The notes under the pieces were generated by a model. It was not told the DNA's origin. It saw only the letters and a list, made by a program, of their open reading frames with translations, and made no database searches. DNA of 64,000 bases, from NCBI RefSeq assembly GCF_053078305.1, contig NZ_CP166879.1; one strand, written 5' to 3'. The position numbers and the translations under genes were made by a program. Below are positions 20,585 through 31,838 of this stretch, piece by piece. The first letter of the stretch is position 1; each line of letters starts with the position of its first letter.

Positions 20585-22366
20585 TTATTCATAGTGCATG
20601 AAGCAGGTTTCAGTCGGTGCATCCGCTGCGTTATCGGCGATATCTTCAAATTCCATGACGTTATCCAGTTCGCTGCCCATCGAAATATTGGTCACACGCT
20701 CGAGAATAACTTCCACGACTACCGGTACCCGATATTGCGCCATTAAGGCTTTCGCCTGTTCAAAGGCCGGTGCAATATCTTCCGGTTTGAAGACGCGAAT
20801 CGCTTTACAACCTAAACCTTCCGCTACTTTTACGTGGTCGACGCCGTAACCGTTCACTTCGCTGGAGTTGATATTCTCGAAAGCGAGTTGCACGCAGTAG
20901 TCCATGTCAAAGGCGCGTTGTGACTGACGAATCAGGCCGAGATAGGCGTTATTCACCAGCACATGGATGTACGGAATGTTGAACTGCGCGCCAACAGCTA
21001 ACTCTTCAATCAGGAACTGGAAGTCGAAGTCACCGGAAATCGCCACCACATTGCGTTTCGGATCAGCGGCACAAACCCCCAGCGCCGCCGGAATCGTCCA
21101 GCCTAACGGACCAGCCTGACCACAGTTGATCCAGTGGCGGTCTTTAAAGACATGCAGCATTTGTGCCGCAGCGATTTGTGACAGGCCAATGGTGGTGACA
21201 TAACAAACATCGCGACCAAAGGCTTTGTTCATCTCTTCATACACGCGCTGCGGTTTCACCGGCACGTTGTCGAAGTGGGTTTTGCGCAGCAAAGTGCGTT
21301 TGCGCTGCTGGCAGTCGGCGACCCATTCTTTACGACACGGCAGACGACCCGCTTTTTGCATCTCCTGCGCCACTTCAACCAGCAGTGTCAGCGCCGCTTT
21401 AGCATCAGAGACAATGCCGAGATCCGGACACAGCACGCGACCAATTTGCGTCGGCTCAATATCGATATGAACGATTTTGCGCCCTTCGGTGTATTTCTCT
21501 ACCGAACCGGTATGACGGTTAGCAAAACGGTTACCGATACCAAACACCATGTCGGACGCCAGCAACGTTGCGTTACCGTAACGATGCGCGGTTTGCAGAC
21601 CGACCATCCCGGCCATCAGTTCATGATCGTCCGGGATACAGCCCCAGCCCATCAGCGTTGGGATCACCGGAACGCTGGTCAGTTCAGCAAACTGTTGTAA
21701 CAGTGCAGCTGCGTCAGCATTGATTACCCCGCCCCCGGCAACAATCACCGGACGTTCGGCCTGGATTAACATTTCTACAGCTTTTTCGATCTGCATACGG
21801 CTGGCAGCAGGTTTGTAGACCGGCAGCGGTTCGTACATGTCAGGATCAAACTCGATTTCCGTAACCTGAACGTCGAACGGTAAATCCACCAGTACCGGAC
21901 CCGGACGACCAGAACGCATCAGGTGAAATGCCTGTTGCAGCACGCGAGGCACCAGCGCCGCTTCACGTACTGTAACCGCCATTTTGCTGACCGGTTTAGC
22001 AATTGCTTCAATATCTACGGCCTGAAAATCTTCTTTATGCAGACGGGCGCGCGGAGCCTGGCCGGTAATGCACAGAATAGGAATGGAATCAGCAGAAGCA
22101 GAATAGAGCGCGGTGATCATGTCCGTGCCCGCAGGACCGGAAGTCCCCAGACATACGCCGATATTCCCTGCCGTTGCGCGGGTATAACCTTCCGCCATGT
22201 GCGAAGCACCTTCCACATGACGCGCCAGAATGTGACGAATACCGCCGTGCTTACGCATCGCTGAGTAGAACGGATTGATTGCAGCTCCCGGAACACCGAA
22301 GGCGGTGGTGATACCTTCTTTCTCCAGCACATACATTGCCGCGTCAACGGCTCTCATTTTTGCCAT
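20585..22366 (-). CDS. gcl: Glyoxylate carboligase
   Basis: 593 aa ThDP enzyme from ATG at 22366 ([18 protein letters not shown]...); the 30-codon upstream extension in the track is rejected because it spans the promoter and operator. Confidence 0.95.
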
Positions 22367-22387
22367 TTTATTCCTACCTCTATTTAT

Positions 22388-22404
22388 TGGAAAAATTTTC
22401 CAAC
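22388..22404. promoter_or_regulatory. Candidate AllR operator in the gcl promoter
   Basis: Perfect palindrome ttggaaaa-a-ttttccaa between the allR terminator and the gcl start. Confidence 0.55.
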
Positions 22405-22418
22405 TTTCAAATTTTGTC

Positions 22419-22443
22419 AAAAAAACCCGCTCCGCAGAGCGGG
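22419..22443 (-). terminator. Rho-independent terminator downstream of allR
   Basis: On the minus strand, stem cccgctctgcggagcggg followed by a 7-U run. Confidence 0.5.
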
Positions 22444-22455
22444 ATGCGACAGACA

Positions 22456-23271
22456 TTATGGATGTGCTTTCAGTCCCAACGCCGTGCTGATATCGCGGGC
22501 GGTGTCTCTGACCAGCTCACCCTGACTGACAAAACGGTCTTCTGTCAGTCTTGATGAAGGCCCGGAGATGGAGATAGCGGCAACAACACTACCCACATCA
22601 TCGTAAATTGCTGAAGCTATGCAATTCAGACCTACAACATGCTCTTCTTTATCTACGGTATAGCCCAGTTCACGCGCTTGTTCCAGGTCCTTCAGCAGGG
22701 TGGGCATATCCACAAGCGTAGTTGGCGTAAACTGCTGCAAACCGGTTTGCAGAATGATGCTCATCAACTCCTCTTCCGCCAGCGGATAAAGCAGCGCTTT
22801 GCCCGCACCGGAAGCATGCAGTGGCAGACGACTGCCCAGTGGCGCACACATCCTGACCATCGATTTACACTCTAACTGACCAATTAATACCGCTTCATTG
22901 CCGTTACGGATCGCGACATTGACCGTTTCGCCGGAAAGTAACATCAGGCGGCGCATAAACGGCCCGGCGACGGAGAGGACATCGCGGTTATGGATGTACG
23001 CTGCACCGACGTTAAAGACACCTAATCCTATATGCCACCAGCCTAACTGACTGTCCTGATAGACAAAATCCGCTGCCTGTAAAACCTTCAGCAAGCGAAA
23101 GGTCGTGGAGAGCGGCAAATCCAGATTGAGAGAAATATCGCTAACCGACGAACTTCCCCCACTTTTTTCCAGATATTGCAGAATCGCAATTCCCCGCTCT
23201 AATGCCTGTGCGCCCTTCTGTGCCACAGGCTCCGCCTGTCCTGGCCTGCCGCGCCGTCTAACTTCCGTCAT
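22456..23271 (-). CDS. allR: Allantoin/glyoxylate regulon repressor (IclR family)
   Basis: 271 aa IclR-type regulator. Confidence 0.95.
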
Positions 23272-23348
23272 ACCTACGTTAACTCCGACCTACAAGTGAG
23301 CATAAACAATGAACAATTAGTTTATCTTATGCAAGTCGGTTGCAGGCG

Positions 23349-23831
23349 TCACGCAAAACAGAGTTCCTGTTCAGGAATACTTTCAACATCACAGTTGTCA
23401 CTGCCGCCGCGATCGATGGTCAGAAAATCGGTGACGCGCTGCCAGGCGAAAAGTGGGTGATGCCAGACGTTACGATGGTAATTCACTCCCTGTTCGCCGT
23501 TGGTAATAAACGCCCGCAGGGTTGACAGGTCTGGTTTGTCGTCACCTAACGCCACGACCACCACAAACACCTCACCTTTCATCGGGATAAAGGCCTGAGT
23601 ACCCAGCGGATGACGTTCGAGTTCGTGAATGGTCAGCGGCAGATTCGCCGGTTGCGCGCGGTTAATGCTGATAAGCGTACGGTCTTGCTCAAGAATCTCA
23701 ACCAGCGCCAAATCGTGGTAACGCTCCACCAGGCCATTGTTAATATGGAAAAAATCCCGTTGCTGCGTTTCGATTACGTCGCCATAAGCACTAAAGGCTT
23801 CCTGACTTAACGGTAATACCTGAAGTTTCAT
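23349..23831 (-). CDS. allA: Ureidoglycolate lyase
   Basis: 160 aa cupin protein divergent from allS. Confidence 0.95.
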
Positions 23832-23936
23832 CTTTTTGTCCTTGTAACATAATTCCGTTCAACCAGCGCCGACCGGTCAGCTTGGTTTCAATAACAGGCA
23901 ATCTAAAACCTTAAGAGAACAACATCAACACAAAAG

Positions 23937-23953
23937 TTGGAATATTTTTCCAA
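23937..23953. promoter_or_regulatory. Candidate AllR operator in the allS-allA intergenic region
   Basis: ttggaatatttttccaa, same TTGGAA-N5-TTCCAA architecture as the gcl site. Confidence 0.5.
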
Positions 23954-24060
23954 AACTAGATTTAGTCCACAAATTGAACAGGGTTATCATGTAAAAATAC
24001 TGATAAATCAGAGGATAAGAAAATCACGCAACTTGCGGATTTAAAAGGGGATACCTGAAG

Positions 24061-24987
24061 ATGTTCGATCCAGAAACCTTGCGGACTTTCATTGCGGTTG
24101 CTGAAACAGGAAGTTTTTCAAAAGCGGCAGAACGATTATGTAAAACCACGGCGACGATCAGTTATCGCATTAAACTTCTGGAAGAGAATACCGGAGTAGC
24201 GCTGTTTTTCCGCACGACTCGCAGCGTGACGTTGACAGCAGCTGGCGAGCATCTACTTTCCCAGGCCAGAGACTGGCTGAGCTGGCTGGAAAGTATGCCC
24301 AGCGAGCTGCAACAGGTGAATGATGGCGTGGAACGCCAGGTGAATATTGTCATCAACAACCTGCTCTACAACCCCCAGGCCGTCGCCCAGTTGCTGGCGT
24401 GGCTGAATGAACGTTACCCCTTTACCCAGTTTCACATCTCCCGACAAATCTATATGGGCGTCTGGGACTCGCTATTGTACGAAGGTTTTTCGCTGGCTAT
24501 CGGCGTCACGGGAACCGAGGCGCTGGCAAATACCTTTAGTCTTGATCCCTTAGGATCGGTGCAATGGCGATTTGTCATGGCGGCGGATCATCCGCTGGCG
24601 AACGTTGAAGAGCCGCTAACAGAAGCGCAGTTGCGGCGCTTTCCGGCGGTCAATATTGAAGACAGCGCCCGCACCTTAACCAAACGCGTCGCCTGGCGAT
24701 TGCCAGGGCAAAAAGAGATTATTGTTCCTGATATGGAAACGAAAATTGCCGCCCATCTGGCGGGCGTTGGCATTGGTTTTTTGCCAAAATCGCTTTGCCA
24801 GTCAATGATCGATAATCAACAACTGGTCAGCCGGGTAATCCCAACGATGCGCCCTCCTTCGCCATTGAGTCTGGCATGGCGCAAATTTGGCAGCGGCAAA
24901 GCGGTAGAAGATATTGTGACCTTGTTTACCCAGCGCAGGCCGGAAATCAGCGGATTTTTAGAAATTTTCGGCAACCCACGCAGTTAA
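24061..24987 (+). CDS. allS: LysR-type activator of allDCE
   Basis: 308 aa LTTR with N-terminal HTH. Confidence 0.93.
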
Positions 24988-26150: not shown

Positions 26151-26265
26151 TGAGGGACGTATTTGTATTAGTCGCGACTTGATCTGACACATGGCCTTGA
26201 AAGGTTGAGAGTTACCGGTTTTGATATGAGTGTCGAATCCTTATCCAAAACAAGAGGTAACTCTC

Positions 26266-26637
26266 ATGCTTCATACTGCCAATCCCGTCATCAAACACAA
26301 AGCCGGTTTGCTCAATCTGGCTGAAGAACTCAGCAACGTATCAAAAGCCTGTAAAATCATGGGCGTTTCGCGTGATACGTTTTATCGTTACCGCGAACTG
26401 GTCGCTGAAGGCGGTGTGGATGCGCAGATTAATCGTAGTCGCCGCGCTCCTAACCTTAAGAACCGTACCGATGAGGCAACTGAACAGGCTGTTGTTGATT
26501 ACGCCGTCGCTTTCCCGACACATGGTCAGCACCGGGCCAGCAACGAACTGCGTAAACAGGGGGTTTTTATCTCCGACAGTGGTGTCCGTTCTGTCTGGTT
26601 ACTCCATAACCTTGAGAATCTCAAAAGACGATACTGA
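26266..26637 (+). mobile_element. Truncated transposase (N-terminal HTH fragment, integrase-core IS type), likely pseudogene
   Basis: 124 aa from ATG at 26266 with SD aagagg; HTH-like segment (MGVSRDTFYRYRELV) but no catalytic DDE domain. Confidence 0.5.
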
Positions 26638-26669
26638 ACAAATTTTATCAGGTGACGTTCCGTAAAAAG

Positions 26670-26786
26670 TTGTATGGAGTTCTCGATGCAGTCGGCGCGA
26701 CTATCAGTACCCCCGCTGAACCCTGGACTATCGGGCCGCCGTACTGGGGCATGTCACCCTGGCGTGCCGCTGGTTTTCCGCTAATG
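26670..26786 (-). pseudogene. Vestigial rhs 5' (PAAR N-terminal) remnant with mutated start codon
   Basis: About 120 bp with clear nucleotide similarity to the 5' end of the main rhs gene (31740-31838); encodes [25 protein letters not shown], with the start ATG changed to ATT, then stops after about 45 codons. Confidence 0.55.
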
Positions 26787-27151
26787 GTTTATTTCCTCTT
26801 TCTTTCCCGGCAAGAATTTATTTTAATCCGGAAGGATTATTTATTTTCAGATAGGGACTCACATTAAACACGTAACATTTTAATTAATGCATGGCTGAAT
26901 ATGTATTACACAATGTCAGATATCGTAAAAGACCAGTGCAATTCTATGTAAACTCTCTGACTGTTCATTTTATTTGTTGTTTCAGGGTCGGAACTCACCC
27001 TCAATAAACAACTGAATACGAGTAGATATTCATCGTCTGAGCTATATGGCTTTACACAATAGTCGACATGTCTTTTCTCAGTCAGGAATTTTACTTTTCC
27101 TCACTACGAAGTTGACGACTTCGATATGGGATAGACTCTTAATTCAAGCAA

Positions 27152-27643
27152 TTACTCTGCACAAGCATCAGGCAATCCAGCTCCAATATTTGTTATAAAA
27201 TAATGCGTAACATTAATTTCACCAACAAAAAAAAGATTTACGCTATCCCCTTGCCCTGGTATTTTACCATATTTACACCACACTTTTTTTGTATCTGGAT
27301 CATTCTTTGATACGATTTTCGCCACTTGTTCCCTGGCCCTCACCGTCAATGTTTTCTTAAACCTCCCCCCATCATCGATTGTTAGGGAAAAATAAGAAAA
27401 AAAATAATCATCTTCTACATTTGTGGATATTGATATATCCACCGCTACGTGCGGAAAAAAATCTGGGAGCCATGTAAAAACTCCATCATTTTCTGGTATT
27501 GCCATATAGTTTATGTAATGCTTACTTACAAGAGATTCATCTTTGTGTAAATAAAGATAAGTAGTCACGCATAAAAAAACAACGATTATAATAGCAAAAA
27601 TAAATATTACCATCTTTGAGATGTTACTTGAGATAGCCAGCAT
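27152..27643 (-). CDS. Putative Rhs immunity protein (membrane-anchored)
   Basis: 163 aa ORF whose ATG overlaps the last codons of rhs; N-terminal TM helix ([22 protein letters not shown]); alternative start at 27613. Confidence 0.6.
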
Positions 27644-30600
27644 CTTGTAAAGCCTTTATCGTTTTTTTATGCTCTGGATTAATATAATCAATACATCTAT
27701 TTGAGCAATCTTGTGTTAATGGACATGTCAACCCATGTTCATTTACAGCCAAGTCTTTTTTATTATCTTCAATCATCTCAGAATGGGATAACTTTACTTT
27801 TCTGCCGTACATACCGAACATATTTAACCCGTAATCTCTAATCTCTTTTTCATAACCCAGCCCTTTCGCCGATCGGCTAACACCAGCGTCATTTAATTTA
27901 GACACTCGACAAAATGCCATACAATGGAAAAATTGATCAGTCCCACCTAAATTTAATCTCTTCATATCATCATAAGTATCAGATAATATATCCCATGCTC
28001 TTTGATGGTTTAGTTGTTCTTTTTTTCGCATTAACGCTACATCTGCAGGACTTAACCCTAATGGATCAATACCATTCACCGGATTCAGCGGATACGCATA
28101 CAGACTCCATCCCCCCGCCAGCCCAATCGGGTCCTGAGTAATATATCGTCCCAGCAACGGATTGTAGTACCGGTTCCGGTTATAATACAGCCCCGACTCC
28201 TCATCATACTGCTGCCCCGGCAGCCGGTACGGCTGGTGCAGGTGATGCGGGTTCTCCTCATTCAGCTGGTTGCCCCATTCATCATACTCCCCGCTCCACG
28301 CCGTATTGCCGTCTTCGCTGATGAGCGCCAGCGGCAGGCCCCGGTGGTCGCAGTGGTAAAGATGAACTTTTCTCGCCGGTGTGTATTCCGGCTCCACCTG
28401 TCTGGCCAGTTGCTCCACCGTCAGCCCGCACTGCGCAAGCCACGCCCGGCTTTCACTGCTCACGCGGTCTGCCCGGATTTCCCCCTCCAGCCTGTCCAGC
28501 AGCCCCACCAGTTCAGCCGGGAACACCACACCGTGGCCGTCTTCGCTCCCTTCCTGCTGCAGCTTCTCCGCCAGGCTGCGGCACTGCGCTTTCTCCCGTT
28601 CACCGTTGTCTGTTTCGATGCGGATGAGCGGCGCGAAGCTCCCCGGCTGGTATACCGTCTGGATACGCGTGGTGTCGGTCTGTACCGTCGTCAGCCGGTC
28701 GCCGTCCCATCCGTACCACGTCACCTCCGGTTTACGCGACAGCGACATCCATCCCGTCAGGTCACGCCCGCGACGCCACACCCGTTTTCCCGTCCGGCGG
28801 CCCAGCGGGTCGTAGAGGTAGCGGCTCTCGACCAGTGGCTCCTCATGCTGTATCCGCGTGTAAAACACCAGCCGGTGCTGGCTGTCGTAGTGGTAGTGGT
28901 GGGTCCGCTCGTCGTCCGTCCGTATCACACCCGTCGGGATGCGGTCCGTCTTCTCCGTCAGCCTGCCGTATTCATCGTAACGGTACAGGTAATGCGCGTC
29001 TTTGGTGATGCGGTTATCCGGCCACGCCGTGAGCGTGCTGTCCGGGTGCAGCTCCGGGTCCGGCAGGCGGTTGCCCGCCGGGTCGGTCGCATACGGGATG
29101 CGGATGTCCAGGTCCGGTGCGAGGGTGCGCACGCTCTCCAGCCTGCCCGTGGCGCTGTAGCCGTATTCCCGCGTCTGCCGGGGGGCGCTGATGCGCACCA
29201 GGTCGCCGTTGTCATTCCACCCGTAGTCACGGTCATATACCAGGCTGTTCAGGTGCTGGCTCTGTAACTGGCCTGCGGGGGTGTATGTGCTGGTCAGTTC
29301 GTATGCGGCATTACTGCCTGCCATGCTGCCGAAGCTGCGCACCGTCTCACGGTGCAGCCTGTCCCGCGTATACTCGACCAGCGGCGTCCCGCCCAGCTTC
29401 ATTCCCGCCAGGTAACCGCTGCCATACGTCAGCCACTCCACCGGCGGCAGGCTGTCCGGCGTGACGCGGTTTGCCAGCCCCTGTTCGTTGTATGCGTGTT
29501 TCGTCTCATGCTGCCACAGCAGTTCCCCCGTCTCCGGGTTCTCCACCGTCTGGCGTTCGCCGGTCAGGCGGCCCTTATCGTCGTAGCCGTAGTGGGCAGC
29601 GACACGGTGGCCTTCACTGAGATGGCTGATGTCTGTCAGCCAGCCGTGGCCGTCATACTGCCACTGCTCTGCCGGTTCACCGTTTACCGTGCGGTGAGTG
29701 ATACGGTCCGATTCATCGTAGTACCAGAGGATGACAAGTCCCTCATCCTCACTCTGTGTGAGTTTTCCGGTCAGGTCATAATGATAACGTTGCGTCCGCC
29801 CGTCAAAGCCGCCCTGCTGTACCAGCCGGTCCAGCGCATCGTAACTGAAGACGCTGTGGCTGCCGTTCTCGTTGGTCAGGCTGATGACACGTCCGGCAGC
29901 ATCGTACTCCATACTGCGCGTCAGCCCGCCCTGCGTGGTGCTGACCGCCTTTCCCCACGCATCGTACTGTGTCTCGCTCCGGTTGCCGTCCGGGGTGATA
30001 ACGGCAGTCAGGTCGCCTGCGGCGTTGTATTCATACCGCGTTTCACGGCCCTGTGCGTCTTTCACCGAGGTTAACCGGCCACGGTTGTCATAGCGGCGGT
30101 AAAGGCTGATGCCTTCCTCGCGGTGGACCGCCGTCATCTGGCCGAAGCGGTCGTATTCATAACGGGTCTGGTAGCCCGAGCAGTCGGTGAACGCCAGCAA
30201 CTGACCGTAGCGGCTCCACGTCATCTGCCGGGTGCTGCCCGTCGCATCTGTTGTTGTGGCCGGTAATTCACTGTGCGCATCATCATAGCGGTAGCGTACT
30301 GTCTCCCCGCTGCGCGATGTCTCCGTTACCAGCCTGTCCAGTTCATCATATGCCCGGCGGCTCTCCAGCCCGTCCGGGGACACCACCGCCGTCAGCTGGT
30401 TCCCGTCGTTATAGTAAAATTTCGTCTCCCGCCCGTCCGGTGTGGTGATGTCCGTGATGTCGCCTGACACCACATTCAGACCGTACTCTGTCCGCCGTCC
30501 CGCCGCGTCCGTCTGCGCCGTGAGCCTTCCTGCCGCGTCATACCCGCTGTGCGTGATGCTGCCGTCCGCCTGTTCCTTCATCACCACCCGTTTCAGCCCG

Positions 30601-31838
30601 GCCTCGCCTTCTGTATGCAGCACCTCACGCCGGTTCAGGCTGTCTGTGACGGTGATGCGGTCCTGCTCATACTGGTAGCAGTAACTCAGGCCTGCCGGGT
30701 TTAGTTGCTCCACCACCCGCCCCGCATCGTCGTAGCGGTAGCGCATCTCCGGCCTTCCCGCGTAACGGTGCGCCACCATCCGCCCGGGGTGCTGCGCGTC
30801 ATATGTGAAAGCGCGCACCTGCGTATTGCTGCGGTCATATACCGCCAGCAGTTCACCGGCCTCCGTATACGTGTACCGCGCCAGTGGCGCACCGGGCAGA
30901 TTCTCCGGGTATGCCGGGTCGTGCATCAGCCACACCGCCGAAAGGCGGATACCCCTGTCGGGGCCGTATTCGGTACCGGGCAGTGTGTCGGGGAACGCTG
31001 AGTCTGAAAGAGGGCGGGGGGTGTCAGGGGAAGATAAGGAAGCGGTGTGCTGTTTACGGGCCTCTTCCGCCCGCTGCGCCTGCGTGGTCAGCACCAGACG
31101 GAACTCCCGCCCGGCACCGTCCGTCACGCCGGTGATGTCCCCGGCCAGGTCGCCTGCGGCCTCACGCCGGTACACCAGCGTCCGCCCGAAGCGGTCCGCC
31201 ATCCCGGTAAGCACCCGGTACGGCGGCAGCGGCGCTGGCAGTACGTCCTCAGCACCCGGCACCCGCTCAGACCACCCCAGTATCCACCACGGCCCCTGTG
31301 CGCTGTTGGTCGCCAGGTAAAGATGCGGGCTTAACCGGATATCCGGCGGCAGCGACGCCCACAGCCGTGCCAGCGTATGGCCGTCCGGCTGTGCTGCCTT
31401 ACCACCGCGCACCAGCCACAGGGACTCGCTGCGGCTGTACACCGCCTCACCCGGCAGCAGCGGCTCAAAGTGAATGCTCCGTCCGCCGTCGTTGTCGTTG
31501 AGTACCAGTGCATCATCGCGTAGCTGTAAGCGGATATCAGAAGGCGCTTTCCAGCCGGGGCCAAAAATCCCCACCGGTGCAGGCGTCTTCGTCCGGTAGC
31601 TGCTGTAGGTGCGGGAGAGAATGAACGGCAGCGGGCCGGGCAGCGCAAGGTCCGTCTCGCCGGGCAGCACCTTCGCCCCCAGCAGCGGATTTACCGGGTT
31701 GCCCGAAGTCATCCCGCCCGGACACACCGAGCACGACACGCCAGTTGGCGCGCCAATTCTTACACCTGCCGAACCCTGGACAATGGGACCGCCATACTGA
31801 GTCATATCTCCCTGACGCGCCGCTGGTTTTCCGCTCAT
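27624..31838 (-). CDS. rhsD: Rhs-family polymorphic toxin (PAAR N-terminus, YD-repeat shell, C-terminal toxin)
   Basis: 1404 aa with PAAR-like N-terminus ([25 protein letters not shown]), many YD/RHS repeats, and DPxGL boundary ([10 protein letters not shown]) before a roughly 150 aa C-terminal tip. Gene symbol is by synteny only; the tip may differ from K-12. Confidence 0.92.

Follow-up and report, generated by a model that had tools for sequence, protein, structure and literature searches.

Two palindromes flanking allR in the Escherichia coli allantoin gene cluster match the published AllR operators and are conserved across enterobacterial genera

The regulator AllR represses gcl, allA and allS, and binds to the allS-allA control region and to the gcl promoter; glyoxylate releases AllR and relieves the repression, and AllS then activates allD and allF (PMC12535856, PMC11323563). 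For the binding of AllR and its release by glyoxylate, the later literature cites Rintoul 2002, Walker 2006 and Hasegawa 2008. The operators of AllR have been known since 2002 and are included in motif collections, and so are not novel. An AllR box, KTTGGAAWAWTWTTCCAAC, was defined by Suvorova & Gelfand 2021 based on Rintoul 2002 and on their own comparative genomics (PMC8222616 Table 1), and a 37-bp ‘AllR recognition site’, AAATCTAGTTTTGGAAAAATATTCCAACTTTTGTATT, is attributed to Rintoul et al. 2002 as quoted by a 2026 paper (PMC13300388); this 37-bp sequence is found exactly in K-12 MG1655 at 532319-532355. A ∼77-bp K-12 fragment that starts right after the allR stop and reaches the gcl ribosome-binding site has been employed as the gcl promoter in a lux reporter (PMC13300388), and gcl promoter-lux is already in biosensor use. 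For IclR, a paralogue of AllR and the regulator of the glyoxylate shunt, the box TGGAAATNATTTCCA has been defined (PMC8222616 Table 1).

The window analysed here, i.e. the whole 64-kb stretch of DNA, contains the E. coli allantoin cluster. By transferring the RefSeq annotation to the window, gcl (glyoxylate carboligase, the first gene of the gcl operon) was located at 20585-22366, allR (IclR-family repressor) at 22456-23271 and allA (ureidoglycolate lyase) at 23349-23831, all on the minus strand, and allS, which encodes the LysR-type activator of allD and allF (PMC12535856), at 24061-24987 on the plus strand and divergent from allA; Pfam further identified allR, allA and allS, and tblastn gcl, allA and allS. 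The AllR protein comprises the Pfam domains HTH_IclR and IclR_C, and its effector domain matches PDB 1TF1, a solved structure of the AllR effector domain with four chains that is named ‘negative regulator of allantoin and glyoxylate utilization operons’. Thus, the annotation agrees with the four gene identities given in an earlier note made from the sequence, and the Pfam domains with its description of AllR as an IclR-type repressor. A 2-kb segment covering the locus (22200-24200) shares 99.7% identity with E. coli chromosomes, and 5,404 of the 5,426 complete E. coli genomes contain it. As side observations, the allR region is absent from 22 of these 5,426 genomes, and a copy of it is found on a replicon labelled as a plasmid in two E. 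coli records; beyond allS and mnmH/selU (26230-31838), a truncated ylbG pseudogene and an ORF of an RHS-element core protein (27624-31838, minus strand, 1,404 aa) are present, which are unrelated to the palindromes.

Querying the 64-kb window for TTGGAANNNNNTTCCAA yielded two exact matches, at 22387-22403 and 23937-23953, with allR lying between them. The gcl-promoter palindrome, TTGGAAAAATTTTCCAA on the plus strand, is a perfect 6+5+6 repeat and a putative AllR operator; it follows the allR intrinsic terminator within the 89-bp allR-gcl spacer, and 20 nt separate its end from the gcl ATG (22366, minus strand). The allS-allA palindrome, TTGGAATATTTTTCCAA, is placed at the near-exact middle of the 229-bp intergenic region, at distances of 107 and 105 nt from the start codons (ATG) of allS and allA, respectively, as a putative AllR operator common to the two divergent genes. 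The earlier note had called this pair, and both palindromes are indeed present, the second exactly in the interval given; only the first, reported at 22388-22404, was displaced by +1. No TTGGAA-N5-TTCCAA match appeared in 100 dinucleotide-preserving shuffles of the window, and the base composition of the window predicts 0.0024 matches by chance per 64 kb, or ∼0.18 per 4.64-Mb genome; the two palindromes are real and far beyond chance. When up to two mismatches were allowed, no further sites were found in the 64-kb window, and the three-mismatch matches (14 observed versus 22 expected) did not exceed the chance level. Two of the three-mismatch matches adjoin the operators, namely 22360-22376, which overlaps the gcl start and ribosome-binding site, and 23842-23858, which overlaps the allA ribosome-binding site; both were rejected as additional AllR sites, as the alignments displayed no AllR half-site conservation there.

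A search for AllR relatives, taking one genome per species, collected 22 loci with an AllR orthologue, plus one IclR-family locus that is unrelated. The AllR orthologues have 66-100% identity to the query and are distributed in nine genera, i.e. Escherichia, Superficieibacter, Klebsiella, Raoultella, Citrobacter, Buttiauxella, Izhakiella, Atlantibacter and Providencia, and in other Enterobacteriaceae as well, and the allS / allA-allR-gcl order was kept, based on tblastn, in all orthologous loci of sufficient length. Sites were counted in 21 loci, comprising the window and 20 fetched loci, and both palindromes were found at the same two positions in every locus covering them. The gcl core is exact in 20 of the 21 loci with one mismatch in the remaining one, the allS-allA core is exact in 18 with one mismatch in the other three, and no further exact match was found in 148.6 kb of the orthologous loci. 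MAFFT alignments of the two spacers determined mean column identities of 0.996 and 0.989 for the arms, 0.81 and 0.91 for the 5-bp centres, and 0.60 and 0.55 for the other intergenic columns, and the 17-column window with the highest conservation coincided exactly with the palindrome in each alignment. The same behaviour was seen in the most divergent E. coli alleles fetched, in which the flanks and the dyad-centre base change and the arms stay intact.

This conservation bears on two readings in which AllR has no part. Both sites reside in A/T-rich intergenic DNA and their central 5 bp are A/T only, which could point to a chance or compositional feature of A/T-rich promoter DNA, like a UP element, having no specific protein partner; however, the arms keep their G and C bases unchanged in 20 to 21 of the 21 loci while the adjoining A/T-rich DNA drifts, and this pattern and the above statistics (0/100 shuffles, ∼0.002 expected per window) together exclude such an origin for all practical purposes. 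The inverted repeats might otherwise work at the RNA level, forming hairpins in the leaders of gcl, allS or allA, as an attenuator or an element of stability or processing, given that each repeat can fold into a 6-8 bp stem with a 3-5 nt loop and that the gcl repeat is near enough to the ATG to be partially transcribed. But the predicted hairpins are of low stability (−4.4 to −6.5 kcal/mol) and no better than those of shuffled sequences (z −0.9 to −1.6), the identical sequence is present in two unrelated transcripts, and the arms are conserved across genera as sequence with no compensatory changes, the rare variants TTTCAA, TTAGAA and ATGGAA being one-sided and so breaking the pairing. The repeats do not group with terminators or structured RNAs either, as their stems are A/U-rich and the true allR terminator is a separate element at 22426-22443. 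An RNA-level function is therefore hardly credible.

Regarding variation within E. coli, the dyad centre of the gcl operator (22395) is polymorphic, and the 41 nt around the gcl site are identical to those of the window in only 9 of 5,380 genomes. Separately, the record CACSKA010000001.1, labelled Chryseobacterium sp. 18061, was observed to carry a typical enterobacterial allS-allA-allR-gcl cluster, whose operator positions and site sequences are the same as those of the Citrobacter sp. 18056 locus from the same study; this record is probably mislabelled or contaminated.

Both palindromes are situated in the control regions of genes that are reported to be AllR-repressed, i.e. the gcl operon, allS and allA, and were compared with the published AllR sites. 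The allS-allA site, in its minus-strand reading TTTGGAAAAATATTCCAAC, matches the AllR box at 19 of 19 positions, and the gcl site, GTTGGAAAATTTTTCCAAT, at 18 of 19, with the last flank base alone being different. The equivalent of the 37-bp recognition site is found at 23927-23963 (minus strand), centred on the 23937-23953 palindrome and identical at 36 of 37 positions, the sole mismatch being a G for A at the flank position 23929 (plus strand). The allS-allA palindrome thus coincides with the 37-bp site as quoted, and the gcl site is supported via the consensus motif and the prose statements of the papers cited.

The sites also resemble the IclR box, matching it at 12 (gcl) and 11 (allS-allA) of the 14 specified positions, IclR is second only to AllR itself in structural relatedness to AllR, and both regulators respond to glyoxylate (PMC11323563), so it was considered whether the palindromes are, or are also, operators of IclR, with the regulator of the glyoxylate shunt cross-regulating the allantoin genes. 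However, neither site fully matches the IclR box, and the mismatches fall on the inner positions 6/7 and 9/10, namely those separating the IclR box from the AllR box. Moreover, the sites strictly accompany allR in cis, both regions are assigned to AllR only (PMC12535856, PMC11323563), and no report of IclR binding was found in the literature searched. Binding by IclR is thus very unlikely, whereas the match with the published box and site, together with the strict conservation alongside allR, supports that the two palindromes are almost certainly operators of the IclR-family repressor AllR, whose gene separates them. The earlier note had assigned the pair to two places of known AllR action and proposed conserved operators. 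This conforms to the literature, which names the same two regions (PMC12535856, PMC11323563), and to the published footprints so far as secondary quotations relay them, which place AllR at these regions and none elsewhere, and it is borne out by the recurrence of both sites in 21 loci of nine genera, wherever an allR orthologue is present.

In the gcl promoter region, a candidate −35 hexamer, TTGACA, is located at 22415-22420 (minus strand), 11 nt upstream of the palindrome, with the T-run of the terminator supplying part of it; most orthologues retain TTGnnn here. Assuming a 17-nt spacer from TTGACA, the −10 element would fall in the palindrome centre and the operator would span from about −18 to −2, which, if this geometry predicted from the sequence holds, would be the classical position for the exclusion of RNA polymerase. 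The only promoter-scan prediction, TTTCCA-17-TAAAAT (22393 to 22365), was rejected because its −10 falls on the gcl start codon. The allR intrinsic terminator, detected via a terminator scan at 22419-22443 on the minus strand, consists of the hairpin CCCGCTC-N4-GAGCGGG (22426-22443) followed by a T-run; it marks the 3′-end of the sRNA AllZ in K-12 and bounds the gcl control region. It was also observed that the hairpin and T-run merge into TTGACA at the 22415-22443 junction, namely that terminator, promoter and operator are accommodated within ∼60 bp, and that the hairpin, T-run and TTGnnn are conserved across the 22 loci. AllZ (b4831), a 3′UTR-derived sRNA that was reported in a RIL-seq study together with its partner grcA (PMC8175672), maps to K-12 533629-533863, corresponding to ∼22419-22653 of the window on the minus strand, so that it covers the last part of allR and ends at the terminator of this gene, a short distance before the gcl operator.

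The allS-allA intergenic region contains three further conserved elements, i.e. a candidate allA promoter, TTGATG-17-TAGATT, running from 23928 to 23900 toward allA, an extended −10-like sequence, TGTAAAAAT, at 23990-23998 toward allS, and a CCACA block at 23967-23971 that is conserved across genera. With these candidate promoters, the operator core would lie upstream of either core promoter, with its centre near −52 and −60, and the published 37-bp site just reaches the candidate allA −35. Such a placement would not be a textbook position for steric repression, and the geometry at this side is uncertain. As allS is also controlled by nitrogen limitation, independently of NtrC and Nac (PMC12535856), the conserved blocks at 23896-24000 are candidates for this control.

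How the two operators may work can be proposed as follows. In an AllR dimer, each helix-turn-helix probably recognizes one 6-bp arm (TTGGAA/TTCCAA), with the A/T-only 5-bp centre serving presumably as a spacer and not as a recognition element. AllR bound at the gcl operator should exclude RNA polymerase from the −10 and start region, and the single central operator between allS and allA would serve both divergent genes. Glyoxylate, the product of AllA, would then free AllR from the DNA and de-repress gcl, allA and allS, and AllS, once de-repressed, would activate allD and allF. Most likely, AllR occludes the promoters and is released by glyoxylate, with the geometry relative to the transcription start sites being a prediction.

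AllR reportedly acts as a tetramer (Walker 2006), and one tetramer might hold both operators and loop the ∼1.55-kb allA-allR segment between them; if true, the two sites would constitute one cooperative switch that also sets the AllR level. Among the 21 loci, the inter-operator distance ranges from 1541 to 1636 bp, always in cis, and displays no conservation of helical phase. Since the operator spacing simply follows the gene order in this way, nothing argues for looping, and we consider it unlikely.

The contribution of this analysis is a cross-genus footprint, in which virtually no change is seen in the 6-bp arms whereas the dyad centre and flanks vary, and which can be useful for annotation transfer and for the design of AllR-based glyoxylate sensors. 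Compared with the known systems, KdgR operators and other A/T-rich IclR-family motifs share the same inverted-repeat architecture and are bound by the same family of DNA-binding domains (PMC8222616), but the KdgR operators have half-sites of the GAAA...TTTC type and belong to the pectin pathway. The IclR box of aceBAK/iclR is an A/T-rich palindrome with a TGGAA/TTCCA core that is recognized by a glyoxylate-responsive repressor of the IclR family, and differs from the sites described here in the inner positions and in the regulon. The K-12 AllR operators (Rintoul et al. 2002, J Mol Biol 324:599) are the closest of all, from which the window differs at the strain level only, as exemplified by the dyad centre of the gcl site, which in the gcl sense is T in the window versus A in K-12.
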